A stretch of 64,000 nt of DNA from a bacterium (GCA_963623195.1 CAVFKA010000010.1:64398-128397); one strand, 5' to 3'; numbered from the stretch's first letter, positions 16,382 to 58,721 are shown. Program-made: numbers and translations. Notes: a model not told the origin generated them from the sequence alone.

Positions 16382-17509
16382 ATGAAGAAGATAAAAGACA
16401 CATTGCTCGAAAAAGAGTTAGATTTATACAAAAAATATTATGAGGTCGATGATGAAAACAAGCTTATTTGTTTTACCCTTCGTTTTGATTCTGCCTCAGA
16501 ATTGGTAGAAAAAGAAATCTCCACGAAAGAAAAACCCTTAATTAAATATGAGATTTTGGAAATGATATCCGAAAAGATACGCTCTCTCCCTGAAACATAT
16601 AGAGCAGACGTCAAATTGGATATCAAGGATCTTGAAGGATATACGAATGAATCCCTTATGGAAGCCATCAAGGATTCAATTGAATTCTCCCATTACCGCT
16701 CTGATAAGCAAGTTAAGAAGAACTGGGTTCTTGCTTCGATTTTCATTCTTGTTGGATTGGTGATCCTTTTAACGGCGGCTTTCTTAGCATCTTCGGCAGA
16801 AGAGTGGGTTTCCACCACGAATGGCTCTGTTTTCAAAGAGATTTTAGACATTGCTGCTTGGGTATTTATTTGGGAAGCGGTCTCGATACTCTTTATTTCT
16901 CCAACTGAAGAATCCATCGTTGAGAATTCTTTAAGAATCAGACTTCATTCCTTGACCATTTCTTCTAAAAAAGAAGGTGAGGATGCAATTGAGGAGGATT
17001 CCTCGTATCTTTTAAGCGATCATCATTGGAATAAAAGCAAAATCAAAAGAAGCGGTAAGTATATATTGCTTGTTTCTGGCTTTTTGATGATTGCCACAAG
17101 TATTGCTACGGTATTCTTCTTTGTCAGTGGAATCAGGCCTTCATTAGAGTCGATATTCGCTACTGGAAATAACGGAACAACCACAATCGATGGAAAAGAG
17201 GTCAATAATGCGGTGCTTATTACTACCTTTATTTTTGCCCTTATTGTTTGGCTTGGTTTATTAACTTTGCGCGTTCTTGGCGGGCTTGCTGCAGTTTCAA
17301 GATTCGTTGGCAGAGGAAAACTTCAAAAATTCGTCGGGCCTTATGCAATAACGATGCTTGCCCTCTATACTATATTCTTCGTGGCTATTGCGACAATGGG
17401 ATCGGGCTTAGGAGAGGATTTCATTGGAACTATATTCTCTTCAACATTGAGCATTATTCTCAATGTCGCTTATTTAACTGGTTATTTCTTGGACCGTATG
17501 GGACAATAA
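16382..17509 (+). CDS. Membrane protein (soluble N-domain plus about 6 TM), function unknown
   Basis: Long ORF. Hydrophobic helices begin at about residue 115. No motif recognised. Confidence 0.55.
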   Translation: MKKIKDTLLEKELDLYKKYYEVDDENKLICFTLRFDSASELVEKEISTKEKPLIKYEILEMISEKIRSLPETYRADVKLDIKDLEGYTNESLMEAIKDSIEFSHYRSDKQVKKNWVLASIFILVGLVILLTAAFLASSAEEWVSTTNGSVFKEILDIAAWVFIWEAVSILFISPTEESIVENSLRIRLHSLTISSKKEGEDAIEEDSSYLLSDHHWNKSKIKRSGKYILLVSGFLMIATSIATVFFFVSGIRPSLESIFATGNNGTTTIDGKEVNNAVLITTFIFALIVWLGLLTLRVLGGLAAVSRFVGRGKLQKFVGPYAITMLALYTIFFVAIATMGSGLGEDFIGTIFSSTLSIILNVAYLTGYFLDRMGQ

Positions 17510-17515
17510 AAGAGC

Positions 17516-18928
17516 ATGCAAAAGACTCTCGATTTAGAAAAAGATAGACTTGGCACCTTGCTTTTTAGGTTTTCTTTGCCATGCGTTGTCGCCCAATTGA
17601 TATCTTCTTTATACAACATCGTTGATCAGATATTCATTGGCAATTCGTCTTTGGGGTATTATGGCAATGCTGCAACAGGGGTTGTTTTCCCAATCGTTAT
17701 CGTTGCTAACGCTTTTGCTTGGGCTTTTGGAGATGGCATTGCGGCCTTCTTAAGTATTTGCCAAGGAAAGAAAGATTCTTCTAAAGCGGCTAAAGCAATA
17801 GGGACAGGTACTCTTTTAACTATCCTCGCTGCTCTAGGAATTCTTCTTGTGTCTTTTATTTTTGCCAACCCGATTTTGAGATTTTGCGGTGCTTCAGATA
17901 ATACGCTTGAATATGCAAAGACATATTTATTCATCGTTGGCTCTTTCTTCCCTTGCTATATGCTTATCGCCTATCTTAACTCTGTTATAAGAGCGGATGG
18001 ATCTCCGATATACGCGATGATAACAACAGGTGCTGGTGCGATATTGAATGTCATTCTCGACCCTATATTCATCTACGTCCTAAATTGGGGAATGGAAGGA
18101 GCGGCTTGGGCTACCGTAATAGGGCAATTGCTTTCAATTGTTTTAACGCTAATCTATTTCCTCAGATCAAAAACATTCAAACTTGGAATAAAAGATTTGA
18201 TACCTGATTTCAAAATATTCAAAGAGCCTCTTTTGCTTGGCATATCTTCCTTTATAACCGAGATATCAATCGCTGTTATTAACCTTGTTGCTAATGCCGT
18301 GGTCGTTAAATATGGCAATCTTTCCATTTATGGCCAGGATATTCCTATTTCTGCAACCTCAATCGAAACAAAGGTATTCACGCTTGTTCTTAATGTCGTT
18401 GTTGGAATAGTCCTTGGTGCTCAGCCAATAATTGGCTATAACAAAGGTGCAGGCAATATCGAAAGAATCAGAAAGACATATAAAATCATTCTTCTTTGGA
18501 GCTTAGGAATCGGTATTGTTTCAACTCTCTTATTCGAACTCTATCCTGAAGGAATAATCATGTTATTCGGTGGGTCTGAAGAACCTCTATATATGGAATA
18601 TGCCAAACTTGTATTCCGCCTATTTTTAGCCACGACGATCCTTACTTGTTTCATCAAGATGTCTTCAATCTTCTTCCAATCATGCGGAGAGCCTCTTAAA
18701 GCGACCGTTTCATCTCTTGTAAGGGATTTACTCTTTTTCATCCCTAGCGTGCTTCTATTGCCTTTTATTGCCGAGAATAATGAAGCAGGAAGTGGAATCG
18801 TTGCCGTTCTTTTTGCTCCAATGATAGCGGATGTACTCGCTTTCTTCATTGCCTTGGTTCTAACCATTAGACTATTTAAGAAACTTAAGCATTACGAAAA
18901 GACGAGCTTAGAAGAAATCGTCGATTGA
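17516..18928 (+). CDS. MATE-family efflux transporter
   Basis: 12-TM profile and an N-terminus LLFRFSLPCVVAQLISSLYNIVDQIFIG typical of MATE/NorM. Confidence 0.85.
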   Translation: MQKTLDLEKDRLGTLLFRFSLPCVVAQLISSLYNIVDQIFIGNSSLGYYGNAATGVVFPIVIVANAFAWAFGDGIAAFLSICQGKKDSSKAAKAIGTGTLLTILAALGILLVSFIFANPILRFCGASDNTLEYAKTYLFIVGSFFPCYMLIAYLNSVIRADGSPIYAMITTGAGAILNVILDPIFIYVLNWGMEGAAWATVIGQLLSIVLTLIYFLRSKTFKLGIKDLIPDFKIFKEPLLLGISSFITEISIAVINLVANAVVVKYGNLSIYGQDIPISATSIETKVFTLVLNVVVGIVLGAQPIIGYNKGAGNIERIRKTYKIILLWSLGIGIVSTLLFELYPEGIIMLFGGSEEPLYMEYAKLVFRLFLATTILTCFIKMSSIFFQSCGEPLKATVSSLVRDLLFFIPSVLLLPFIAENNEAGSGIVAVLFAPMIADVLAFFIALVLTIRLFKKLKHYEKTSLEEIVD

Positions 18929-18934
18929 TATCCT

Positions 18935-20200
18935 TTAAAAGATTTTTTGTACAAAATTATATAAGGCAAGATTCCAAGAAGAGAATGAATGTTTTTTGAA
19001 TGGGAATACATCAAAAGACGTATTCTTTCCTAAAATTAATCTATCTTCGATTTTCAAGAGGTTTCGATAATCGATTATTTGTTGGTGAAGGGAGAAATCA
19101 AACGTACCTGAAGTCATATAAAGATAGTTGATCGGAAACGATTTGAATTTCTCGCTTTGAAGGTGCTCTTGAAAATACTCTATACTCGTTCTCATGCCGG
19201 AAAATAACCCGAAGTAGCTAAAATAATCTAATGCCCCGCAAAGAATCGATCTAGATGTGGTAACGGCTCCTCTAGAAAGTCCAGCGAATGCACGATGGTT
19301 TCTAGAAGAAAGGAAACCTTCCCCATCTAATGATGTGGCATATGTGGAATATTTATCCTCAACTACGGGCATGATGTCGTTTAATAATTCGTCTTTGAAA
19401 TGATATGTGTATTGGTCTAAATCATTCGCCGAATCATTCTCGGTGTAGAAGGTAGGGGTCACGATAATTAAAGGCTCAATGATATTGTTACCTATCATAT
19501 AATCGAGCATTTTTTTGTTTTTGCTGTTTTTAATTAACCAGGATTCCGCATCATCTCCTGTGCCATGTAGCAAATACAAAATATTGTATTGCTTGTTTTC
19601 ATCATAATTATATGGAGTGTATACATATAGTTTTTTACTAACGTCGCGATTATCTGTCGTGTAAGCTTTGCTAGAATATTCAATTTCGTCTATTTTTCCT
19701 TCTTTTTCGCAGTCTTGATAAACAAAAGAAGGGACGCTATAAATGGAATTCTCAATTGTGGATTTGTTTGTATCTGTAATGTAAGCGGATAATGGGTAAA
19801 TCACAAGCGAAAGAAGCAATATAGATGTCAACGCCACATCAAGTGGGTACTTTTTTATTATTAGATGTTTCTCAAAGACAATTAAAGTCATGATTCCAAC
19901 GATGAAAGCGATAGTTGAGAGTATTGCGTTAATCAAAAAGTCAAAATTGTAGAGACTAGTTTCCAAATAATTTGTATTGAAGAATAAGATAAAGCAAAGC
20001 GCTGCATTGATTGAAAGTAAAAAATACCAATGATGGCGAAATGAAATAAAAGCCAATCCGCCCATGAATAAGTTAAGCAAGAGGATGACCCCAAAGGAGA
20101 CCCATTCGAATTGAACGAAATATTTACCTATTGAAAAAAGACACATCGCCATGATGGCAAAGCAAAGGATGTTCATCGTGTGTTTTTTAAATAAGTTCAT
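18935..20200 (-). CDS. Polytopic membrane domain fused to an esterase (putative-esterase/feruloyl-esterase-like alpha/beta hydrolase)
   Basis: C-half has YNILYLLHGTGDDAESW and FAGLSRGA (G-x-S-x-G). N-half has about 5 TM helices. The start is at M29 behind GGAGAGAA. Confidence 0.7.
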   Translation of the reverse strand: MNLFKKHTMNILCFAIMAMCLFSIGKYFVQFEWVSFGVILLLNLFMGGLAFISFRHHWYFLLSINAALCFILFFNTNYLETSLYNFDFLINAILSTIAFIVGIMTLIVFEKHLIIKKYPLDVALTSILLLSLVIYPLSAYITDTNKSTIENSIYSVPSFVYQDCEKEGKIDEIEYSSKAYTTDNRDVSKKLYVYTPYNYDENKQYNILYLLHGTGDDAESWLIKNSKNKKMLDYMIGNNIIEPLIIVTPTFYTENDSANDLDQYTYHFKDELLNDIMPVVEDKYSTYATSLDGEGFLSSRNHRAFAGLSRGAVTTSRSILCGALDYFSYFGLFSGMRTSIEYFQEHLQSEKFKSFPINYLYMTSGTFDFSLHQQIIDYRNLLKIEDRLILGKNTSFDVFPFKKHSFSSWNLALYNFVQKIF

Positions 20201-20259
20201 AATTCTCTCCTTTTTAGATAAAGGGCAAAGGCTTTCTTGTGACCTTTGCCCTCTGTGTT

Positions 20260-20640
20260 TTATTCTTTTTCGTGTTTTGCACAAACGCTAATGGCTGTGC
20301 AAATTAGAGCCAAGAAAGATAAGACCATAGCGAAGATGAAGAGGAAGGAAATCCCATCCATATCGTTTTTAGCCATTATATCGGCAAGGTTATTCAACAG
20401 TCTAAAGAAGAAGAACCCGAAGGCTAATGCCGAAGTGATAAATGGAACGTAAGAAGTGAACTTAATGTTCTTGACACAAATCAATAGAGCCAATACAGCT
20501 GTAATGATCGTGAAGATAAGAGGTAAGGAGTAGTTGTTTTCAACGCAAACCCCATAGCAGATCGCGCTTATTGCGGATAAGATTACTGCGAGAGCACTTG
20601 CGTAGAAGCCCAAGCCCTTATTACTTAAGAAGTTTTTCAT
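20260..20640 (-). CDS. Small 4-TM membrane protein coupled to GH3 (cassette 1)
   Basis: It starts 2 nt after the GH3 stop and has four hydrophobic helices. It occupies the same position as 58377-58721 in cassette 2. Confidence 0.6.
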   Translation of the reverse strand: MKNFLSNKGLGFYASALAVILSAISAICYGVCVENNYSLPLIFTIITAVLALLICVKNIKFTSYVPFITSALAFGFFFFRLLNNLADIMAKNDMDGISFLFIFAMVLSFLALICTAISVCAKHEKE

Positions 20641-20642
20641 AC

Positions 20643-23516
20643 TTATTTTTCCTCCTCTTTTTTGCCTTTTAGAATTTCACCGGCGACCGCTCCAGCTAAA
20701 GAGACAACGAACAATCCGCCAACAATCCAATCGATGGCGATGATTGTCGTTAACCACCAAGGGTTAACTGCAACAATCTTTGAAGTTGAAGAAATGTTAT
20801 TGAATGCCATAGAGTTGACAACGTTATAAAGAAGATAATGAGCTGAATCTCTAAGGTAACCAACTAATTTAGCATCAGTTTTGCAATCTTCGATAACTTT
20901 ATCATAGATTCCTGCACCTGAAGTTGCCCACATTGTTGTGCCAGCTTCCAATCCTGCTTTGAATCCCATTGAGGTGTTGTAGGAGAAAACAGCATCAGTG
21001 TCGGAGATGGCGGTAGAATTCCATTCTCTTCTCAAAAGATCGTATTGAAGGGATCTTGAAGCACCAGTCCAGGTGCAGCCAATTCTATTGAAGCCACCCA
21101 TTAATCCTTTGACTTCGCCTTCGACTATGCCAGTGTGGAAACCTTCGAGATAGATTTCTCTGAATGCTTGCTGATTGATGAAGGTTGAAACACCTTGTCT
21201 ATTGGTTTCTTGTTCGTTTCCTGCAAAGTGTTTTAAGAATGGGATAGCTCCTTTTTCTTGCATGCCTTTGATTGATGGGACAGCCATTTCACCACTCAGA
21301 TATCCATCTTCAGAGAAGTATTCGAAATTACGTCCTGAATATGGTGTTCTATGGATGTTGACAGATGGGGCATAGTGACCAGTTGTGCCAGTTCTAAGAT
21401 TGTCTTCACCAAAAGCTTGGCCGATTTCATACATCAAATCACGGTCATAAGAGGAGGCCATAATGACAGCAGAAGGGAAGGTGTAGGCATATGTATCAGT
21501 TTTATCTAGATATGTTCTATCGGATACACGATGTGATCCATCTTTCATAAATGTTGAAGGGTAGGCAATCGATTCGACTGCGACTAAACCTGAACGTCCG
21601 CAAAGAGTCACTAAGTCTTCAACGCTTAATTCATCAAGAATATCCTTCCAATGTGAATCATCAAATTCAGCTTCTCTCATCATTGCGACCGTATAGTCGT
21701 TTTTTGCACCAAGCGTGTATTCGCTTAAGTCAGATGAGCCCTTTTGATATTCACCTTCGATATTGAGGGCTTTCTTCATTGCGGCATTTGCGCTTAAACT
21801 CGTATATTCCTTTGGCCAAGTACCATTCCAATCGTTTCTAGAAAGATATGTAACGGCGTTTTCTTGAAAATAGTTAAGATCAATGTCGTCAAAGATGTTT
21901 GTGATTTGAACGCCTTCAGAAGTCTTTGAGTATGTCTTTGTGTCAGTAGAGGAAACGCTATATTGATACACGTCCTCGCTATTTCCATTAACTGCAGCAC
22001 CTTTCTTGGATAGAATGTTGTTCAATGCATCATGAACGTTTTCACCAATAGAAAGATAGTAGTTGCCTGCTTCCATGATATATGTTTTGTTCACGTATGA
22101 ATCATAATGAGCGAGGTCGTCTTTCTTGACTTTAATGGAAAGGGTTTCGCTTTCGTTAGCCCCAAGAGTTTTGGTTTTTTCAAATCCGGCTAATTGAACG
22201 GACGCAACTTCGATCTTGTTTTGCTTATCGAAATCAGTATATGGGGTTTGGGCATAAACTTGAACGGAATGTCTTCCGGCGGTATTACCGGTATTTTTAA
22301 CCTCTACATTAACAAGGAATGAATCTCCTTTGTCTTCAACGTTTTTTAAAGTCTCGCTGAATGTTGTGTAACTTAAGCCATAGCCAAATGGATAGACGAC
22401 TTCTTTTTCGTAATTCCAAGTCGTGTCCTTGAATGCCCCTTTAGAAGAAGTGGCGTTTCCTTGTTTCAAAATGGAATCTTCATATCTTGTTTCGTAATAT
22501 TTGTATCCGACATAAATTCCTTCGGCTTCGACAACGTATTTTGTTGCATTGGCTCCAGCGCCAAGTTCATTAACGATTTCTTCAGAATTTTGATAGGTGT
22601 AGTCGCCAAAATTGACACTTGCTGGAGAAGAGAGGGAATCAGCAGCAAATGTGTCGACTGTTTTTCCAGATGGATTGACTTTCCCGACCAAGATATCGGA
22701 AACTGCCTTGAATCCAGCATGGCCTACAGCACCGATCATTAAACATGCATCGATGTCGTATTCATCTAAGAAGGAAAGCTCAAAGGCGTAAGAGGTGTTA
22801 AGTAAAACGACAACTTTCTTGAAATGCGATTTCGCTTCCTGAATCATTGCTTTTTCGGAATCTTGAAGACTTAAGAATTTCTTTCCGCCTGCAAAATCGC
22901 CGACTGATAAGTCTCCGCCTTCCCCACCAGAACGGGAGATAACGATGATAGCTGCTTCGCCATATGAGTTATAATCGGCTCTGTCAGCATCTTTCATTAA
23001 TGATACATCAACCTCACTAACGGTATTGAACGCAAGCTTTGCGGTGGAATTGGTTGAATAGAAGTTATATAAGGATGGATTGATTTTTAAATTCCCATCG
23101 TTTTCCATACCATCTTTGAAAGAAATGTATGGCGCTGGTGATCCATAACGGACCATGCCAGTGGAAATGGAATTAATCGTGCCATAACCAAATGCCGAAA
23201 CCTTTGCTCCTACGCTTAAAGGTAAGGCGTTGTTCTTGTTCTTTAAAAGGACTGTGCCTTCAGCTTGAACCTTTCTTTCGATTTCTTCCTCACTCTTGAT
23301 CCATTCATCAATAGATTGGCCATTTGTTTTGTAATACTCCGTTTGAGCATTTTCGTCATTGTTGATGATTTTAGAAGTTTGGCCACCTAAAAATGTCGAG
23401 CAAAGTAATGATTTGTAGGAATTTGACCATACTGTTGCTGAGACCAAGACTGGTAAAATGCCGCCAAGAGCCACTGAAAGAATCTTCGCGGGCTTAGTGA
23501 TTTTTTTAAATCCCAT
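20643..23516 (-). CDS. Glycoside hydrolase family 3 (beta-glucosidase/xylosidase-like), domain-permuted, with an N-terminal signal/anchor and a C-terminal TM anchor
   Basis: The order is GH3 C-type sandwich domain (LLKNKNNALPL, ISRSGGEGGDL, VNPSGKTVDTFA), then Fn3-like (YPFGYGLSYTTF, VEVKNTGNTAGRHSVQVY), then the catalytic barrel (KHFAGNEQETNR, GFNRIG, AISDTDA). The terminal helix is IIAIDWIVGGLFVVSLAGAVAG followed by KGKKEEEK. Confidence 0.85.
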   Translation of the reverse strand: MGFKKITKPAKILSVALGGILPVLVSATVWSNSYKSLLCSTFLGGQTSKIINNDENAQTEYYKTNGQSIDEWIKSEEEIERKVQAEGTVLLKNKNNALPLSVGAKVSAFGYGTINSISTGMVRYGSPAPYISFKDGMENDGNLKINPSLYNFYSTNSTAKLAFNTVSEVDVSLMKDADRADYNSYGEAAIIVISRSGGEGGDLSVGDFAGGKKFLSLQDSEKAMIQEAKSHFKKVVVLLNTSYAFELSFLDEYDIDACLMIGAVGHAGFKAVSDILVGKVNPSGKTVDTFAADSLSSPASVNFGDYTYQNSEEIVNELGAGANATKYVVEAEGIYVGYKYYETRYEDSILKQGNATSSKGAFKDTTWNYEKEVVYPFGYGLSYTTFSETLKNVEDKGDSFLVNVEVKNTGNTAGRHSVQVYAQTPYTDFDKQNKIEVASVQLAGFEKTKTLGANESETLSIKVKKDDLAHYDSYVNKTYIMEAGNYYLSIGENVHDALNNILSKKGAAVNGNSEDVYQYSVSSTDTKTYSKTSEGVQITNIFDDIDLNYFQENAVTYLSRNDWNGTWPKEYTSLSANAAMKKALNIEGEYQKGSSDLSEYTLGAKNDYTVAMMREAEFDDSHWKDILDELSVEDLVTLCGRSGLVAVESIAYPSTFMKDGSHRVSDRTYLDKTDTYAYTFPSAVIMASSYDRDLMYEIGQAFGEDNLRTGTTGHYAPSVNIHRTPYSGRNFEYFSEDGYLSGEMAVPSIKGMQEKGAIPFLKHFAGNEQETNRQGVSTFINQQAFREIYLEGFHTGIVEGEVKGLMGGFNRIGCTWTGASRSLQYDLLRREWNSTAISDTDAVFSYNTSMGFKAGLEAGTTMWATSGAGIYDKVIEDCKTDAKLVGYLRDSAHYLLYNVVNSMAFNNISSTSKIVAVNPWWLTTIIAIDWIVGGLFVVSLAGAVAGEILKGKKEEEK

Positions 23517-23570
23517 AGTTGTCTCCTTTTTGACGTGTAAAATTTAACATTACAAAAGAAAAATATTTCT

Positions 23571-23604
23571 ATTTGGCAAAATTAAAGCCGTTTTTGGCAA
23601 AATT
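23571..23604 (-). promoter_or_regulatory. Two perfect 13-bp direct repeats (TTTGGCAAAATTA) with 21-bp phasing; candidate LytTR operator for the GH3 arm of cassette 1
   Basis: The repeats lie at 23571-23583 and 23592-23604, between the kinase stop (23608) and the GH3 start (23516). A TGtTAAATT extended -10-like element lies downstream on the minus strand. Confidence 0.55.
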
Positions 23605-23607
23605 ACC

Positions 23608-24876
23608 TTATTGAAGAGGGAAAATTATATTTAATTTGAATAGTTTATCTTCGATTGCAATATTCATATTGCCTTCATATTTGTTAACGGTATACCTAAT
23701 AGATTTAAGACCAAAACCATGCATATTTTGATCTGACTTGGTTGTTTTTGGAAGACCGTCAACGAGTGAATATTCTCCATCAAAATAGTTTTCAATGTGC
23801 AAGCAAATGATTCCGCCTTTTTTGAATAATTTCAATGATATATAACGGAGAGAGGGGTCTTCGATTTTCTTTTCGTATTCAATGGCATTGTCTAATGCGT
23901 TTCCAATAATCGAGGTGATGTCACCTGGAGATAAGAAAGAAAGCAATGAGCCATCCGCTATTATCGTGAATTCAATTTTCTCTTTAATGCAAAGGTAACG
24001 TTTTTCGGTAAGGATGATATCCAAGGCGGAGTTGCCGGTGATGACTTGGGTGTCATACTCGTTAACTACGTCAATGACTTCATTTATGAACTTATCGTTT
24101 TGTCCCTGCTTCATCATCAAAACTTGATTTTTAAGATCATGAGCTTTGTAATTGATGACTTCCATGTTCTTTTTGGAACTTTCAAATTGAAGGGCTTGCA
24201 ATCTGCTATATTCCTCGAGTGTTTTGTTTTCTTCTTTTTCTTTCGAATAATAGAGAAAATAATATAAGGACGTTAACCCATATAAAGAACATATGGCCAA
24301 AGGCATATGAACAATCCAATATCCATTTAGATCGAATTGCAAAAGCATGAAATGCATGAAATAGATGAAAACTGCGGTTATTATGGCAAAAAGGAACATA
24401 AAACCCGTTTTGATTGTTGTAACATTTTTCCCTGAGTCGATTTTTCTAGCAAAGAAAAAGTAACAAATTCCGTATATGATGACGTTTGTCGTTACTGATA
24501 AAACAAACCATAACGCATCGGTGAAGAAATCAGGAAACGCCCAATAGAAGATCGATTCGATGTTGTATGAAAGATTTTGAGTGAATTGCGCTGAGACACC
24601 AATAAAAAGCAAAGAGGACAAATCAACCTCAAATAAGAAAAAGAAGTAGCCTAAAGTCAAAAGAAAAATGATGAAGGAGAAAAAACCTGGAGTGAAATAT
24701 GCGATAATATTCGGGATGCAAATGACAGAAAGAGCATACACTAAAGTCCCAGGAATTATACGAATTAGGAAATGATTCCTTCTTTTTGCCTTATATCCAT
24801 ATATAAGAATGGCTAACAACAATTGGATGATGTAGCCATGATTAACGCCTATCGAAAAAACATCTGATACAGTCAT
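23608..24876 (-). CDS. AgrC/HPK10-like sensor histidine kinase (GHKL, polytopic sensor domain)
   Basis: About 6-7 TM helices, H-box YKAHDLKNQ, N-box IGNALDNAIEY and G-box HGFGLKSI. ATGA overlap with the upstream regulator. Confidence 0.8.
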   Translation of the reverse strand: MTVSDVFSIGVNHGYIIQLLLAILIYGYKAKRRNHFLIRIIPGTLVYALSVICIPNIIAYFTPGFFSFIIFLLTLGYFFFLFEVDLSSLLFIGVSAQFTQNLSYNIESIFYWAFPDFFTDALWFVLSVTTNVIIYGICYFFFARKIDSGKNVTTIKTGFMFLFAIITAVFIYFMHFMLLQFDLNGYWIVHMPLAICSLYGLTSLYYFLYYSKEKEENKTLEEYSRLQALQFESSKKNMEVINYKAHDLKNQVLMMKQGQNDKFINEVIDVVNEYDTQVITGNSALDIILTEKRYLCIKEKIEFTIIADGSLLSFLSPGDITSIIGNALDNAIEYEKKIEDPSLRYISLKLFKKGGIICLHIENYFDGEYSLVDGLPKTTKSDQNMHGFGLKSIRYTVNKYEGNMNIAIEDKLFKLNIIFPLQ

Positions 24877-25586
24877 TGTTTTTCCTCAGCTAAAAAGCTT
24901 GTTAGTTTTTGCATGAATTCTTTTTTGTAGATATCACTAAGAGGTAGGCGTTCTCCTTGGACAGATATTTCATTTGCCTTAAAAGATTCGACGAATGATA
25001 GATTGATCAATATGGATCTTGTTGAAAAGGCAAACGATTTGCCATTAAAAGAAGACGATATGTTTTGCATCTTGTTCCTCTCCCTTAATGTTTTGCCATT
25101 CGAGAGATGATAAAGAAGATAATGCTTTTCGGTTTCAATGAAGACAATTTCACTTAAATGAGCCACGTATGATTCATCTTGACCATTGATGACATATGTG
25201 GAATCATCCTCGTTTTCGAAACGCTCAACGATCCTATCTAATTTTATTTTGAAGGTGTTGTAGTTAATTGGCTTAAGAATGAAATCCAAGGCATTGACCT
25301 CATAACCCTTGATTGCGTATTGGGAAAGGTTCGTTAAAAAGACAAGAGTTAATTTCGAATCGATCTTTCTTAGTTCGGAAGCTACTTGCATGCCACTCAT
25401 TTTAGGCATATCGATATCCATAAAAACCAAATTAAATTGATTGGCGTAATTATTTAAAAAAGCGACTCCATCCTTATAATGAGTTACTTCAAAATTGATG
25501 TTTTTTTCTTTTCCGTATTCTTGGATATATTTAACCGTTTCGTCGGCAAAATGTTGATCATCTTCAACTAAAGCAATCTTTAACAT
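24873..25586 (-). CDS. LytTR-family response regulator
   Basis: Receiver domain (LVFMDIDMP, ILKP) plus a C-terminal LytTR domain (IVFIETEKHYLLYHL...SILINLSFV). Confidence 0.85.
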   Translation of the reverse strand: MLKIALVEDDQHFADETVKYIQEYGKEKNINFEVTHYKDGVAFLNNYANQFNLVFMDIDMPKMSGMQVASELRKIDSKLTLVFLTNLSQYAIKGYEVNALDFILKPINYNTFKIKLDRIVERFENEDDSTYVINGQDESYVAHLSEIVFIETEKHYLLYHLSNGKTLRERNKMQNISSSFNGKSFAFSTRSILINLSFVESFKANEISVQGERLPLSDIYKKEFMQKLTSFLAEEKQ

Positions 25587-25774
25587 ATCTAATTTTTAAC
25601 TCAATTGATTTTTTGTGTCAACAAATAAAAACTATCCTTCAGAGAGGAAAGACTTGATGGAATAAGAAGATATGTTGAATCCTTTTGTGGCTACGATGTA
25701 GCTTTTATGAAATCGATTGCCGAAAAAAACAAACTGTTGAAGAAATTGCGCAAATAAATGGAAACTCAAAGAAA

Positions 25775-25803
25775 ATAAAAAACAGCCGACTCATCATCGA
25801 CTG
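25775..25803 (-). terminator. Rho-independent terminator of tRNA-Glu
   Basis: On the minus strand CAGTCGA-tgatgag-TCGGCTG plus T6. Confidence 0.65.
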
Positions 25804-25815
25804 TATGCGGCTAAT

Positions 25816-25891
25816 TGGTGACCCAGCCGGGAATCGAACCCGGGATTCAACCTTGAGAGGGTTGCGTCTTGAACCGCTTGACCACAGGGCC
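25816..25891 (-). tRNA. tRNA-Glu (anticodon CTC)
   Basis: The reverse complement is GGCCCTGTGGTCAAGCGGTTCAAGACGCAACCCTCTCAAGGTTGAATCCCGGGTTCGATTCCCGGCTGGGTCACCA. It has the G2-U71 pair typical of tRNA-Glu and a U6-U67 mismatch. Confidence 0.8.
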
Positions 25892-25937
25892 GCGACAACA
25901 ATTAAACCATTATTTCATCATTCTTTCAAGAAACTTC

Positions 25938-27335
25938 TTAGTTATCTGATCTAGCAAAGCCATTCTTCATCGCACAAGAGACGACATATGTGAGGGTATT
26001 CAAGACTTTTTGAGTTAACTTTTGAGCCATATCAGAAAGTTCTTGGTTTGCTTCCTCAAGCTTACTTCCATCAGCTAATTCATCGTATTTATTGAGAATG
26101 ATATGAGAAGAAGTTGCAACATTGTTTTGATATCTTTCAATATGAATCGAACATATATTGAAATGAGAATCGGCAAGGCAAGAGATGAGGCGAGAATTCC
26201 AATAGAAGTTATTGGTGTCGACATCTAAAGTCGTGTTAGAGAAGTATTCAGGGAATTTCTTGACGTTTGCATATAAAGGAACAAATGCGTTAAATGGGTT
26301 TGAGGCGAAACAAATCCATTCGACGGCACTTAATTCTTCAGGAACGTTGTTTCTGACTTCTAAACAAGCCATGAAAGAAGTCCTTGAGATACCAATTGGA
26401 CGATATTTGTTCTTTTCTGGGGACTCTCCTTTTCCATATGGATCATATGGGGTTCCTTGATAATGGGAAGAAAGGAGATATTTCACGTCTTCAACCGTTA
26501 TCTTTCTATTTGGCTTAAGAGACCATGGTATGTCATCGTCTTCTGGGGAGAAATAATCATATCCTAGACGCTTGGCAAGATACCAGGCTCTTGGGGTATT
26601 GTAGACATGATCGGAATCTGAAGCGGATCCAAAAGCCAATCTTGGGTTGAAATCGATATCATCAATATTGCAATCAAGATTGTATTTTTTCATGAATTGT
26701 TGCAAATCAGGTGAACACATATTCTCTTTTTGAGAGATTAGAGCATCATCGAAATCGAAATTGTCGATGCCGAATTGGTTAGGCATTATGACGACCTCGT
26801 TATCTTTGACTCTTTTTGCAATCCAATGATGGCCACCAATAGTTTCTAACCACCATATCTCATCTTTATCCGAAAAGGCGATTCCGTTAGGCTCAGAGGT
26901 TCCATATTGCTCAAGAAGTTTCCCTAAGCGTATAACGCCTTCCTTGGCTGAGTGGATATATGGTAAAACGATTGAAACCAAATCTTCTTCGCCAAGACCA
27001 TCTCCAACATATGGATCAGCCCCTAAAACGCGTGAATTAGAAGTGATTGTTTCAGTCGCGGACATTCCAACGTTAGCTGAGTTAAAACCTGCAGCAGGCC
27101 AAATACCCTCACTTGGATCAACATTAGGAACCATAGAATAACGTAATGGATTGTCAGGCAACTCTATTTTGAAAGCCGAACCTTTTGCTTCATAATGCCT
27201 TGGTTGACGAGCTGGATCAACGCTGACTAATTTCTTTGCGTGGAATTTTCCAGAAGGAGAATCATCATTTCTTGCAATGAATGTGCTCCCATTATTTGAT
27301 GCCCCTTTTCCTACGAGAATTGTCGTACATGCCAT
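25938..27335 (-). CDS. C69-family dipeptidase
   Basis: N-terminal MACTTILVGKGASNNGSTFIARNDD (N-terminal Cys nucleophile signature). Confidence 0.85.
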   Translation of the reverse strand: MACTTILVGKGASNNGSTFIARNDDSPSGKFHAKKLVSVDPARQPRHYEAKGSAFKIELPDNPLRYSMVPNVDPSEGIWPAAGFNSANVGMSATETITSNSRVLGADPYVGDGLGEEDLVSIVLPYIHSAKEGVIRLGKLLEQYGTSEPNGIAFSDKDEIWWLETIGGHHWIAKRVKDNEVVIMPNQFGIDNFDFDDALISQKENMCSPDLQQFMKKYNLDCNIDDIDFNPRLAFGSASDSDHVYNTPRAWYLAKRLGYDYFSPEDDDIPWSLKPNRKITVEDVKYLLSSHYQGTPYDPYGKGESPEKNKYRPIGISRTSFMACLEVRNNVPEELSAVEWICFASNPFNAFVPLYANVKKFPEYFSNTTLDVDTNNFYWNSRLISCLADSHFNICSIHIERYQNNVATSSHIILNKYDELADGSKLEEANQELSDMAQKLTQKVLNTLTYVVSCAMKNGFARSDN

Positions 27336-52399: not shown

Positions 52400-53125
52400 A
52401 TGATAAAAGTTGCGATTGTTGAAGATTCAAAACAAGATTTAAACGATTTATTATCCTGTCTTACCCAATATGAGAAAGAACATTCAGAGGAATTTCAAAT
52501 CGATTCATTTTCCAATGGTTTAGATTTCATTGAGAAATACAATGAAGGATACGACCTGGTTTTCATGGATGTTAATATGCCTTATGAAAACGGTATTAGC
52601 ATTTCTAAACGCTTACGCCTTATTGATAAAGATGTTCCTATTGTTTTCGTAACTCAAATGGCTCAATATGCCATCTCAGCCTTCGATGTAAGTGCTAAGG
52701 ATTACCTTCTTAAACCAATCATATATTCATCTTTTGCTTTTCGCTTTTCCAAAATTCTCGATGGAATAAAAATCAATTCAGGGAATGATGGCGTTTCTTT
52801 TCTAGTTAAAACATCGGATGCACACATTAAAATAAACTCAAACGATATAACTTACGTTGAAGTCGTAAGGCATACTCTTATTTTCCATACGTTGGATGGA
52901 GAATTTGAAACAGGCGGTTCATTGAAAAATATAGAAGCTAAGCTATCTGGTCAAGGAAAGACGTTTGCTAAATGCAACAATTGTTACCTCATTAATCTTA
53001 GATATATTGAAAAAATAGAGAGCGAAACGCTTTATCTTAAAGGGGCGGCATTAAAAATTAGTCGTTCACGCAAAAAAGAATTCATGGATCGCGTTTGTCT
53101 CTATTATGCAGAAGGTGGACATTAA
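52400..53125 (+). CDS. LytTR-family response regulator (cassette 2)
   Basis: Receiver (LVFMDVNMP, LLKP) plus LytTR domain (ITYVEVVRHTLIFHT...CYLINLRYI). Confidence 0.85.
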   Translation: MIKVAIVEDSKQDLNDLLSCLTQYEKEHSEEFQIDSFSNGLDFIEKYNEGYDLVFMDVNMPYENGISISKRLRLIDKDVPIVFVTQMAQYAISAFDVSAKDYLLKPIIYSSFAFRFSKILDGIKINSGNDGVSFLVKTSDAHIKINSNDITYVEVVRHTLIFHTLDGEFETGGSLKNIEAKLSGQGKTFAKCNNCYLINLRYIEKIESETLYLKGAALKISRSRKKEFMDRVCLYYAEGGH

Positions 53126-54435
53126 TGGAATTCCTTAACGCCATTTTTGTTACGCTTCAACAATATCAATTTCGCTTGTTTTGGCCTGAACTTTTATTCA
53201 TGATTCATTTGCCAAAACGCTCATTTTACTGGCTAAGATCGCTGGTTTGGATTCCTTTTTTAATCGTTCCATTTTTCTTTAGTACCTTTTTTACTAGTCC
53301 CTTTTTCAAATTGGGTTTTTATAATTGGAGCTTTTTGCTTTGGTTCGTCTATTCCATTTTTGCTGTCTGCTTTTGCCATAAGACAAATGTTTCAAATTTT
53401 ATTTTTGCTTTGGCCTCTGCCTATACCATTCAGAATTTATTTGTCGACTTCAAATTCTTTATTTACTATATGCTTAGCCCCGATGAAACTCTTTTGTATA
53501 ACATCTTGACGTTCTTGCTAATGGTTGGCATATATGCAATTACATATTTCCTTTTTACGAAACCATGGTCGAAAAAAATCAATGAAGGTTTGAAAATCAA
53601 CCATATATCCTTGGTTGTCATCTCTATTTTTATCCTTCTTTTCCTCAATGTTCTAAGTTCCGTTCTCGTTAATATTACCGATAACACAAAAACACTCGCG
53701 ATAATTTGCCTTCTTTTCTCTATTTGTTCTCTTTTTGTCTTGATGCTTCTTTCTACCGCTTATGACAAATCATATTTTCAATACGAAACCGAAAGCGTTA
53801 AAAAAATGCTGGATGAGTTCGAAAGACAAAGAAAAATATCCGAGCAAACAATCGATATCATTAACATGAAATGCCATGACATGAAACATCAACTTATGGC
53901 TTTAAGAAGTTCAAAAGAAAACATCGATGACGATTTTTATAAAAAAGCAGTAGACTCCATCGCCATATATGATTCTTTCTTTAAGACGGGAAATGAATCC
54001 CTTGATTTGGTTCTTACGGAGAAAAGCCTTCTTTGCAACAAAGAAAACATAAGACTTACGTGTGTTGCGGACGGTGAGGCGATTTCTTTCATGAAGCCAA
54101 GTGATGTTTACTCTTTCTTTGGAAATGCAATAGATAACGCTATGGAATGCCTCGTCAAATATGATAAAAGCAAAAGAGATCTAAGCATAATTGTTAGAAA
54201 AACAAATACAGGTTTTGTTAGCATTACGATTGAAAACTATTGCCAAGAGGATGCCAAGTTTGTAAATGGATTGCCAAAAACCACAAAAAACAATGTCTCA
54301 TTTCATGGCTTTGGAACTAAGAGCATGAAATACATAATCGAAGATATATATCACGGAACTATCTTGATGGAGCGTAAGAAAGATGCATTTTGTGTCTCCG
54401 TGTTGATCCAAATCGATCAAGAAAAGACCAAATGA
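53125..54435 (+). CDS. AgrC/HPK10-like sensor histidine kinase (cassette 2)
   Basis: About 6 TM helices, H-box MKCHDMKHQ, N-box FGNAIDNAMEC and G-box HGFGTKSM. TAATG coupling to the regulator. Confidence 0.8.
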   Translation: MEFLNAIFVTLQQYQFRLFWPELLFMIHLPKRSFYWLRSLVWIPFLIVPFFFSTFFTSPFFKLGFYNWSFLLWFVYSIFAVCFCHKTNVSNFIFALASAYTIQNLFVDFKFFIYYMLSPDETLLYNILTFLLMVGIYAITYFLFTKPWSKKINEGLKINHISLVVISIFILLFLNVLSSVLVNITDNTKTLAIICLLFSICSLFVLMLLSTAYDKSYFQYETESVKKMLDEFERQRKISEQTIDIINMKCHDMKHQLMALRSSKENIDDDFYKKAVDSIAIYDSFFKTGNESLDLVLTEKSLLCNKENIRLTCVADGEAISFMKPSDVYSFFGNAIDNAMECLVKYDKSKRDLSIIVRKTNTGFVSITIENYCQEDAKFVNGLPKTTKNNVSFHGFGTKSMKYIIEDIYHGTILMERKKDAFCVSVLIQIDQEKTK

Positions 54436-54479
54436 ATTCTTTTGAAACGTTAAATTGAAAGCGCTTTATACGCAAACCG

Positions 54480-54528
54480 TGCAAGAAAAACGACAACTTA
54501 TGCAAGAGCAAGAGCAAGTTATGCAGGA
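54480..54528 (+). promoter_or_regulatory. Three TGCA(A/G)GA-centred direct repeats at exact 21-bp phasing; candidate LytTR operator for the cassette-2 glycosidase arm
   Basis: TGCAAGA at 54480, TGCAAGA at 54501 (within ACTTATGCAAGA) and TGCAGGA at 54522 (within AGTTATGCAGGA), about 80 nt upstream of the 54608 start. Confidence 0.5.
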
Positions 54529-54607
54529 ATGAATACTGAGTGTTTTGGGTTTGTTGCACCTTCATTTTTCCCTTTTTAAAATTCAATCAAATCTAAAAGG
54601 AGAAATT

Positions 54608-55585
54608 ATGACAAAACCAAAAAAGATTATTGTCGCTTTGATTCCTCTTGCGCTTTACGCCGTCGCTGGCGCAAGCTATGGCATTGTTACTGCTATCCAG
54701 AACAATGCTAGCAAGTCGAACACAGCAAAAAAGCAAAATGATACTGGCGATTATCAGTTTGCTTTCTCTGGGACGGTTGAAACTGTCACAGGAAGAACCT
54801 TCACCCTTGATCTTAACGGAAACAAAGATGAAGAGAAAACTCTTACTTTAGCAGTAGAGGAAATGCCAGCCCTTTCAATTGGCGGAAATTGGGAATACGT
54901 CGAAAACAAAGGCTACAAAATTTTCCTCAACGACGCTAATGGCACATTCGCTTACACAAGGTATCACACAGATAGCAAAACATTTACTGTCATGTTTGAT
55001 TACGACATGGGCAATTTTGGCCAACCAAAAGTCAATCTCACATATAAAGATGAGGATTTTGCAACTAAATACGATGGAATCGGTTTAGGGAAAAAACCTC
55101 CGTCATTTAGTCTTACAGGCTATACAACCTTTAACCATTATGGTTATGGCTCCCTTCTTTTTAAGGAAGATGGAAGCGTTGTTGCAAACCTTACTAACAC
55201 CGGCGCTGGTTGGTATTTCAATAGAAGTGGTAAATGGGAATTTAATGAAGAAACCCAAGAATACGATTATTGGTTCACCGATCAAACGATATCCCTCACT
55301 GACGGAAATTTAAACATCCGTGGTGAAGATGGAGCTCATTACGTATGGTGGACAAAATTCACGAAAGATAGCGAAACTCCTGAGTTCCGTATTCAACTTG
55401 ATTATGATGAATTCGTAAATAAGTATCATCTTTTCACAGGTGAAGAATACAAATATCATACGGAATTCATTGAAGCGGAAAGCAAATATTATGCAACCGT
55501 GGACGCACAATATAACTGGGGTCTTAACACTGGAGATATCGTCGAATTCTCCGGATATGCATCCTTAGCTGATATGGAGGGTTAA
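54608..55585 (+). CDS. Signal-anchored, aromatic-rich extracytoplasmic protein of unknown function (possible glycan-binding partner of GH3)
   Basis: Strong AAAGGAG RBS and an N-terminal TM/signal (IIVALIPLALYAVAGASYG). The Y/W/F/N/G/T-rich body suggests a beta-rich fold. It ends 5 nt before GH3. Confidence 0.6.
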   Translation: MTKPKKIIVALIPLALYAVAGASYGIVTAIQNNASKSNTAKKQNDTGDYQFAFSGTVETVTGRTFTLDLNGNKDEEKTLTLAVEEMPALSIGGNWEYVENKGYKIFLNDANGTFAYTRYHTDSKTFTVMFDYDMGNFGQPKVNLTYKDEDFATKYDGIGLGKKPPSFSLTGYTTFNHYGYGSLLFKEDGSVVANLTNTGAGWYFNRSGKWEFNEETQEYDYWFTDQTISLTDGNLNIRGEDGAHYVWWTKFTKDSETPEFRIQLDYDEFVNKYHLFTGEEYKYHTEFIEAESKYYATVDAQYNWGLNTGDIVEFSGYASLADMEG

Positions 55586-55590
55586 TCAAA

Positions 55591-58380: not shown

Positions 58381-58721
58381 ACCTCAAAATTAATAACAAA
58401 TTAGACTATCTCAATCTTGGCTCAGTAATTGGCTCGTTGATTGGATTCGTTCTTGCTCTTGTTGGCTGCTTAGCCTTATCAAACAAGGTTGGCATTGGTG
58501 TAAACACATCTCTCTCCCCTGTTGTCTATGTTGGCATAGCTGTCCTCGTTGTTGGTCTCGCTTTATCGATTGCTGGCAACATCTACTATGAGAAGAAAGA
58601 TGACATGAATAGAATCTTCGCTAGCACAGCTCTATATGTTGCCGTGATAGCCTTGATGATTGTTGCAGTTGTTATCATTCTTACAATCCTCATGCCTGTT
58701 CTTCATCCAACAAACGGTTAA
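58377..58721 (+). CDS. Small polytopic membrane protein coupled to GH3 (cassette 2)
   Basis: ATGA overlap with the GH3 stop. Three to four TM helices. Confidence 0.6.
   Translation: MNLKINNKLDYLNLGSVIGSLIGFVLALVGCLALSNKVGIGVNTSLSPVVYVGIAVLVVGLALSIAGNIYYEKKDDMNRIFASTALYVAVIALMIVAVVIILTILMPVLHPTNG

Follow-up and report, generated by a model that had tools for sequence, protein, structure and literature searches.

A conserved AgrC/LytTR two-component system paired with a membrane-anchored, circularly permuted GH3 glycosidase

AgrC/LytTR two-component systems are usually portrayed as peptide quorum-sensing devices, and the locus described here raises the question of what such a system does beside a glycosidase. 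The locus lies in a 64,000-nt stretch of bacterial DNA (GCA_963623195.1, CAVFKA010000010.1:64398-128397), referred to as the window. Cassette 1, as we call it, comprises five co-oriented genes on the minus strand within 18935-25621, as read from the open reading frames (ORFs). They encode a response regulator (RR), a histidine kinase (HK), a family 3 glycoside hydrolase (GH3), a small membrane protein and an esterase. The cassette is a real, widespread and conserved variant of the AgrC/LytTR arrangement, and it probably serves as a dedicated sensor-regulator module through which a glycan cue governs a surface GH3 operon. Its features, in the order of transcription, are as follows.

25592-25621, minus: putative sigma-70-like promoter TTGACA-18-AAAAAT ahead of the RR and HK genes, from a consensus match
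24873-25586, minus: RR with REC and LytTR domains (Pfam), 237 aa
23608-24876, minus: HK with a HATPase_c_5 domain, 422 aa
23593-23605, minus: predicted distal operator box TAATTTTGCCAAA, a 13-mer repeat 21 nt from the proximal box
23572-23584, minus: predicted proximal operator box TAATTTTGCCAAA, its TTTGCC core starting 64 nt upstream of the GH3 ATG
23541-23549, minus: possible extended -10 element TGTTAAATT of the regulated promoter, picked out by eye and of low confidence
23522-23529, minus: ribosome-binding site AAAGGAGA ahead of GH3
20643-23516, minus: GH3, circularly permuted by Pfam domain order, 957 aa
20260-20640, minus: small protein with four transmembrane (TM) helices, 126 aa, beginning 2 nt past the GH3 stop
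18935-20200, minus: esterase (PF00756, CE1-like, by Pfam) read from an internal ATG, the terminal gene of the cassette

The RR stop and the HK start share an ATGA overlap, and the 91-nt gap between HK and GH3 holds both operator boxes. The esterase ORF is open over 18935-20284, with the ATG at 20200 as its likely start. An earlier note on this stretch, made from the sequence alone, had described all five ORFs in this order with their coordinates and the ATGA overlap, a direct-repeat operator between HK and GH3, a membrane-fused esterase at 18935-20200, an AgrC/HPK10-like polytopic kinase with a LytTR regulator, and the lack of any AgrB/AgrD-like or ABC/bacteriocin gene. These points all held up: no AgrB, ABC or bacteriocin gene occurs within about 10 kb of cassette 1, and the evidence on the others is given below.

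The RR has a Response_reg domain (PF00072, 63 bits) and a LytTR domain (PF04397, 36.9 bits), as expected of a LytTR regulator; its NCBIfam matches to BtsR/LytR cover the receiver domain only and are far under cut-off. The sole Pfam match of the HK is HATPase_c_5 (PF14501), at 92.9 bits compared with a cut-off of 22. Both hydropathy and an AF2 model of the full-length protein (pLDDT 85, pTM 0.70) give it seven TM helices with loops of merely 4-9 aa, and so the kinase is predicted to lack an extracellular domain. The helices in the model are at residues 13-27, 36-61, 63-81, 86-113, 120-141, 157-180 and 187-255, and the sensor domain modelled alone reached pLDDT 86 and pTM 0.84. The DHp motif is H246-D247. 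Together with N326 and N330 these residues are invariant across 38 homologues, and H246 and D247 are invariant in 48/48 sequences of a wider kinase set. A search of the PDB with the HK family profile matched only the ATPase (CA) domain of AgrC (E = 0.003), and the top Foldseek match of the full-length model was the AgrC cytoplasmic module, all matches being to kinase cores. With a GHKL domain, a polytopic sensor, an H-D motif and an N box, the protein is classed, from sequence and model, as an AgrC-type (HPK10-like) kinase.

The sensor half of the kinase is less familiar. The closest relative of the HK among 5.8 billion proteins is no more than 43% identical to it, and the closest match in the GTDB species representatives is 40% identical. 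When the sensor domain alone was compared by phmmer with 1.84 billion representatives, 54 matches were returned; the near-full-length ones were kinase-sized, and two matches (540 and 823 aa) were longer than a kinase. A fold search with the same domain gave a best E of 0.25, which is generic 7-TM noise, and no SWEET-, PnuC- or transporter-like fold was seen. Neither search linked the sensor to a family beyond this kinase clade. Within the clade an intramembrane polar core is conserved, made up of Q/E18, E23, Q100 (41/48 sequences), N/H101, Y104 and Y135. Further polar residues are invariant only within the subclade, and the predicted topology puts them in the outer halves of the helices. This pattern would suit a ligand pocket with a common signalling core and subclade-specific contacts, although it is no proof of one.

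The Pfam domains of the GH3 run in the order GH3_C (88-383), Fn3-like (417-493) and GH3_N (679-843), ie the enzyme is a circular permutation of the GlyA1 type, and its alignment to the GlyA1 structure (PDB 5K6L) follows the same domain order. GlyA1 is a permuted GH3 beta-glycosidase from the rumen (PMC5104943). The (alpha/beta)6 sandwich, FnIII domain and (alpha/beta)8 barrel, the conserved catalytic Glu and Asp, and a gut or rumen habitat are common to GlyA1 and BrGH3A (PMC11233000) and to the group described here. D841 aligns with D709 of GlyA1 and with the nucleophile of Thermotoga Bgl3B (TnBgl3B); E199 aligns with the acid/base E143 of GlyA1 and, likewise, with that of TnBgl3B. Both residues are invariant among 23 partner GH3s, and to judge from its residues the enzyme looks active. 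Similarity to GlyA1 is modest (232 bits), and its highest-scoring NCBIfam models (arabinopyranosidase, beta-glucosidase, xylosidase) all fall well short of their equivalog cut-offs. The closest relative, at 63% identity, is on a contig from a Christensenellaceae metagenome-assembled genome (L011; loci are cited by such numbers where needed).

Hydropathy reveals hydrophobic segments with flanking basic residues at both ends of the GH3, an N-terminal one at about 9-31 and a C-terminal one at about 920-951, and the catalytic body, attached through one of them or through both, is therefore predicted to be outside the membrane. The GlyA1 paper (PMC5104943) mentions no signal peptide or TM segment; the present enzyme differs in having an anchor at each end and a dedicated two-component system (TCS). 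About 85% of the partner GH3s have a C-terminal TM segment, and they share a conserved (P/T)WW juxtamembrane motif in which W921 is at least 90% conserved. Eight partners of 1.1-2.1 thousand residues (L023, L031, L034, L041, L046, L056, L060 and L080) carry extra C-terminal domains in place of the TM anchor and have kept the TCS.

The last two genes also encode membrane proteins. Hydropathy gives the 126-aa protein four TM helices, and no significant Pfam or NCBIfam match was obtained for it, for five of its relatives or for a secreted protein of the second cassette described below. The esterase has about five N-terminal TM helices fused to the PF00756 domain (38.2 bits compared with a cut-off of 22), a GLSRG serine motif of the GxSxG form in its translation, and a partial NCBIfam match to xylanase/feruloyl esterase. 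In the closest subclade both proteins are conserved parts of the cassette.

One line of evidence that ties the TCS to the glycosidase is the repeat in front of GH3. The 13-mer TAATTTTGCCAAA has exactly two copies in the window, both between the HK stop and the GH3 start. A single exact copy could be chance, but the LytTR period of the pair and its conservation in orthologous loci argue that the two copies are not. LytTR sites are nine-bp direct repeats with a 12-bp spacer, located just upstream of a weak -35 element (PMC6193735); the pair here, with its 21-nt period, is a predicted site of that kind. The candidate extended -10 element TGTTAAATT is 25 nt after the proximal box, which would therefore overlie the -35 region. 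This element was missed by a consensus scan, as is to be expected of an activator-dependent promoter with a poor -35. No TTTGCC box or copy of the 13-mer was found upstream of RR when the window was searched, and thus the circuit is not obviously autoinduced.

The period was examined more widely by counting 10-nt direct repeats with at least nine matches, at periods of 11-40 nt, in the 430 nt that precede each of 71 partner GH3 genes. Such repeats occur at period 21 in 17/71 loci, compared with 0-4 loci at each other period (mean 1.7) and a mean of 0.8 in shuffled sequences. Against a background of 1.7 loci per period the Poisson probability of this excess is about 1e-12. In the subclade of cassette 1, Bifidobacterium included, two (A/T)TTTGCC boxes stand exactly 21 nt apart in 11/11 loci, the proximal one 64-122 nt before the GH3 ATG, and the flanking DNA has no other obvious conservation. 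On comparison of these loci, the boxes are a phylogenetic footprint of the predicted regulator site. Other subclades have different boxes (TACGAAC, AGTCAC, CAGTTAGAC and so on), as is expected of insulated paralogues.

The pairing of the kinase with GH3 was then followed into other genomes. A kinase profile scan of one genome per GTDB species gave 80 loci with HK relatives 28-40% identical, and partners were located by tblastn within 8 kb of the kinase. An RR and a permuted GH3 were both present in 73/80 loci, the GH3 match being near full length in nearly all; when only loci with room to judge are counted, the figure is 73/76. Four of the seven loci without GH3 are on contigs that stop beside the kinase, two have less than 2.2 kb downstream of it, and one (L026) is fully flanked. 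This roomy exception proved not to be a GH3 carrier, a Big_3 surface protein standing in place of GH3. Five contigs traced independently, with HK relatives 33-40% identical, all have the kinase flanked by a LytTR regulator on one side and a permuted GH3 on the other. Four of the five have the small protein and the esterase as well, and one of the five is from Bifidobacterium sp. ESL0745. When ORFs from 84 loci were clustered, the only near-universal families were RR/HK and GH3, followed by the esterase (10 loci), GH2 (10), GtrA-like proteins (8) and Big_3 proteins (7). The ten esterase homologues are at the equivalent position in the cassette. A small ORF with 3-5 TM helices comes immediately after GH3 in 29/65 loci, and an iterative search with hidden Markov models placed 26 of the 29 encoded proteins in one family.

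The hosts belong to Bacillota and Actinomycetota and include Christensenellaceae, Roseburia, Blautia, Hungatella effluvii, Oscillospiraceae, Gemmiger, Amphibacillus, Bifidobacterium asteroides, Olsenella and Atopobium. Linkage persists through changes of gene order and orientation (L007, L017, L032, L053); in L007 and L017 the order is GH3, small protein, RR, HK, and there the TCS could be co-transcribed with the enzyme. Several genomes have two or three modules (L011/L060; L030/L058/L064; L033/L045). The test was also made from the GH3 side, with metagenomic relatives having at least 2.5 kb of flank: a TCS was nearby for 23/31 enzymes with a C-terminal TM segment compared with 2/8 unanchored ones.

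These figures bear on the simplest objection, ie that the TCS and GH3 are neighbours by chance or were transferred together horizontally, and that the repeat is fortuitous. Against it, the linkage holds down to 28% kinase identity, across two phyla and in the rearranged orders listed above; the excess of period-21 repeats has the very small Poisson probability already given; and the operator is kept in all 11 loci of the subclade. We regard chance adjacency as effectively excluded. The wiring of the TCS to GH3 that the earlier note had proposed is strongly supported by the same observations, namely the 73/80 loci, the 5/5 traced contigs and the 21-nt operator.

A few members of the wider set deserve separate mention. 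Large Big_3-domain surface proteins (745-989 aa) recur in seven loci, for example at 4150-7119 in L026, where this protein is the sole candidate output, and at 3522-5759 in L025. Loci with no 4-TM gene often have, directly downstream of GH3, a lipoprotein-like ORF with a signal peptide followed by Cys; it is 220-300 aa long in L024, L030, L058, L059 and L062, and the products may be substrate-binding accessories. The module was also found on contigs labelled Prevotellaceae, Paludibacteraceae, Bacteroidaceae and B. thetaiotaomicron (L015, L016, L032, L076). L015 and L016 are near-identical contigs assigned to different families, and binning contamination, rather than an origin in Bacteroidota, is the most likely explanation for the carriers so labelled.

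The window itself contains a second module, cassette 2 (52400-58721, plus strand), which is paralogous to cassette 1 with identities of 30% (RR), 34% (HK) and 38% (GH3), the last spanning the full length of the enzyme.

52400-53125, plus: LytTR response regulator (Pfam)
53095-54435, plus: AgrC-type kinase (Pfam)
54496-54528, plus: predicted operator ACTTATGCAAGA / AGTTATGCAGGA with a 21-nt period, about 80 nt upstream of the ATG at 54608
54608-55585, plus: secreted protein of 325 aa, of no known family (Pfam/NCBIfam, hydropathy)
55591-58380, plus: permuted, tail-anchored GH3 (Pfam, hydropathy)
58377-58721, plus: small protein with 3-4 TM helices (hydropathy)

The cassette 2 repeat, TTATGCA(A/G)GA, is in the kinase-distal intergenic region; it differs from the cassette 1 box and its period is also 21 nt. 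The 325-aa secreted protein is encoded between the operator and GH3, and has one weak homologue, in the same position in L119. Two insulated modules with different operators in one window, and up to three per genome, form the pattern expected of substrate-specific regulators.

The kind of signal is the next question, and the peptide explanation has precedent on its side. Classical quorum sensing would have the pheromone and its processing genes elsewhere in the genome, with GH3 as a density-regulated public good. AgrC-type kinases of known ligand mostly bind peptides, the kinase core here is AgrC-like, and our view of this genome is of 64 kb. Agr-type systems (AgrC/AgrA; ComDE, BlpRH, FsrCA, PlnBCD) do share with cassette 1 a polytopic AgrC-type GHKL kinase with an H-D motif, an adjacent LytTR regulator, and two direct repeats at a 21-nt period beside an activator-dependent promoter. 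They differ from it in having AgrB/AgrD, a double-glycine peptide or an ABC exporter; their sensor domains are unrelated to the present one in sequence, and the output here is a glycosidase operon. No linked pheromone, processing or export gene was found in the window flanks or in the 84 loci, a result that covers linked genes. No AgrB-like family and no recurrent family of small or processing proteins emerged from the ORF clustering of those loci, which returned no recurrent transporter family either, and the precomputed annotations of the five traced loci contain no AgrB Pfam hit. Agr, Com and Blp circuits are autoinduced, whereas an autoregulatory operator is lacking ahead of RR and HK in cassette 1, the 13-mer being solely between HK and GH3. 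Two to three paralogous modules per genome, each with its own GH3, and a sensor without detectable similarity outside its kinase clade likewise fit poorly with a pheromone. An autoinducing-peptide locus adjacent to the cassette in relatives had been named in the earlier note as a finding that would overturn its view, and no AgrB/AgrD-type or other pheromone family recurs in the 84 loci. Peptide quorum sensing is, on this evidence, very improbable. A 45-aa ORF just upstream of RR (25632-25769, minus) was considered as an AgrD-like pheromone gene and judged spurious: it starts with TTG, encodes no Cys and shares sequence with the predicted promoter, and AgrB is missing.

A glycan-derived rather than a peptide cue is the most economical inference, and the working model is one of a self-contained sense-and-respond module serving one cell-surface glycosidase. 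RR and HK are probably expressed from their own promoter. The kinase would phosphorylate the regulator upon an extracellular, non-peptide, carbohydrate-related cue, most likely a plant-derived glycoside or oligosaccharide on which the enzyme acts, or the product of that reaction. Bound as a tandem dimer to the pair of TTTGCC boxes, which lie 21 nt apart close upstream of a weak promoter, the regulator would activate the genes for GH3, for the 4-TM protein and for the membrane-fused esterase. Each of these products would reside in the membrane or on it, with any catalytic domain facing outwards. The present data show the gene content, the conservation of the linkage and of the operator geometry, and the intact catalytic residues; from these we infer activation as the direction of regulation, the nature of the signal and the site at which it binds. 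An exo-glycosidase and a CE1-like esterase at the surface, with plant-glycan enzymes as neighbours, suggest that the substrates are decorated plant glycosides or fragments of hemicellulose. The carbohydrate genes that neighbour the module in relatives include GH2, GH43, GH78, GH127, GH31 and MFS. In L003 (1-11300; Bifidobacterium sp. ESL0745) two LytTR two-component systems stand back to back, and the second has as neighbours another permuted GH3, an MFS transporter and a GH78 rhamnosidase, a hint of flavonoids or rhamnoglycosides as substrates in this Bifidobacterium. The ESL strains are bee-gut isolates.

Several observations weigh against this model. The module lacks a conserved sugar transporter, an unusual trait in a catabolic locus. 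A kinase with no extracytoplasmic domain would need to bind a hydrophilic glycan within its helix bundle or through a partner protein. Just 17/71 loci clear the strict repeat threshold; many of the others have weaker 21-nt repeats, or an operon that begins with a gene other than GH3. No terminator was seen between HK and GH3 in the scan, and so part of GH3 expression may be unregulated read-through. Eight tail-anchored GH3 relatives with adequate flanks have no TCS, and no ligand, expression or binding data for any member were found in the literature.

The lack of an extracellular domain also speaks for a second scheme, with the enzyme as a co-receptor. In that scheme the kinase would not bind the cue itself but would read the state of the membrane-anchored GH3, of the 4-TM protein or of both through helix-helix contacts, and turnover would be converted into kinase activity, in the manner of BceS-BceAB flux sensing or DcuS-DctA transporter co-sensing. 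The partner is always of the same GH3 subfamily, with the frequent C-terminal TM segment and conserved (P/T)WW motif described above; unanchored GH3 relatives seldom have a TCS; and the small 4-TM protein is translationally coupled to GH3 in 29/65 loci. Against an obligatory contact stand the eight partner GH3s in which extra C-terminal domains replace the TM anchor and the TCS is kept, and the 4-TM protein is missing in over half of the loci. Pairwise distances of HK and GH3 are barely correlated (r = 0.19, Spearman -0.08) compared with 0.55 for HK and RR, though this mirror-tree comparison is uninformative on physical coupling. We consider such sensing unlikely, if worth keeping in mind, and are equally doubtful of a single membrane complex of HK, 4-TM protein and doubly anchored GH3, in which the kinase would measure glycoside turnover by the ecto-enzyme rather than bind a ligand. 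Were it so, it would be a new sensing principle for AgrC-type kinases and a Gram-positive counterpart to BceS-BceAB.

The missing transporter, together with products that are all membrane-embedded or surface-tethered, could also mean that the module is directed at the envelope. GH3 would then trim glycopolymers on the surface of the cell that makes it (wall polysaccharide, glycosylated teichoic acid or exopolysaccharide) and the kinase would sense envelope perturbation, as has been proposed for LytSR-type systems. Intramembrane-sensing kinases often signal envelope stress, and GtrA-like membrane proteins are present in eight loci. The enzyme, however, groups with beta-glucosidases and xylosidases (TnBgl3B, GlyA1) and not with the NagZ type, the partner esterase is similar to CE1 feruloyl/acetyl-xylan esterases, plant-glycan enzymes adjoin the module, and several divergent modules per genome suit many substrates better than one envelope. 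An envelope role is accordingly improbable, and a module for plant-glycan use remains the reading that we prefer.

The sensors of polysaccharide utilisation loci (PULs) are a close parallel to such a module. Bacteroides hybrid two-component systems, SusR and the regulators of Gram-positive PULs (PMC5320581) share with it the provision of one sensor/regulator per glycan unit and several insulated paralogues per genome. Those sensors carry a sugar-binding domain in the periplasm or outside the cell, or are cytoplasmic regulators of the LacI/AraC types, in contrast to the bare 7-TM bundle and lack of a conserved transporter here. An RR[LytTR]+HK pair was tabulated by Sheridan et al. in the Roseburia Gram-positive PUL Ros-7. 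Neither cassette 1 nor cassette 2 has a transporter and none recurs across the loci. A Gram-positive PUL, reportedly as set out by Sheridan et al. in 2016, combines an enzyme, a transporter and a regulator, and by that definition the cassettes are not full PULs. Precedent for LytTR regulators beyond peptide pheromones is provided by LytSR, BtsSR/YpdAB (pyruvate) and AlgZR, with similar direct-repeat binding; the kinases of these systems are of the LytS/5TM-Lyt family, with different sensor and ATPase features. A LytTR gene beside cellulase genes is also on record in Cellulosilyticum ruminicola, where it is xylan-induced.

The description of the system as an orphan, with the novelty this implied in the earlier note, was overstated. 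Kelly et al. (2010; PMC2914790) had noted, in one sentence of the annotation of Butyrivibrio proteoclasticus B316, LytTR regulators beside secreted, C-terminally anchored GH3 enzymes. Theirs is the same module, of which the present cassette is a distant relative without the extra GH2 and transporter and with a membrane-fused esterase. The B316 annotation concerned one genome and gave no operator, phylogenetic breadth, permuted topology, 4-TM family or experiment, and full-text literature searches found no experimental work on the module. The present analysis adds the breadth of the pairing, over two phyla and dozens of species, and its near-exclusiveness on the kinase side. It adds also the permuted, doubly anchored enzyme, the conserved 21-nt operator, the 4-TM family and the family-wide absence of pheromone genes.

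A whole AgrC/LytTR clade is devoted to one subfamily of surface glycosidases in gut, rumen and insect-gut bacteria of two phyla, often in several copies and with no peptide genes. Much less is understood of how glycan use is regulated in Firmicutes and Bifidobacteria than in Bacteroides, and if the wiring is as proposed these bacteria possess compact, insulated sensor-promoter pairs for plant glycosides. The conserved operator allows each kinase to be paired with its promoter, a practical route to what the 7-TM kinase detects, and the modules could act as diet-responsive switches in engineered gut commensals.

The surroundings of cassette 1 may be summarised briefly. An Rfam scan of 18000-27000 matched a tRNA alone, and no riboswitch or leader was found in that interval. 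The consensus scan placed one further feature upstream of the cassette.

25782-25804: intrinsic terminator of the upstream tRNA-Glu

At 16382-17509 (plus), between gltX and a MatE exporter gene, a 375-aa protein is encoded that has several hydrophobic stretches and matches nothing in Pfam. The neighbours within about 10 kb of cassette 1 are MatE, an Na/H exchanger, HMA, FeoB, a C69 dipeptidase and tRNA-Glu, and the MatE gene beside the cassette is convergent with it.

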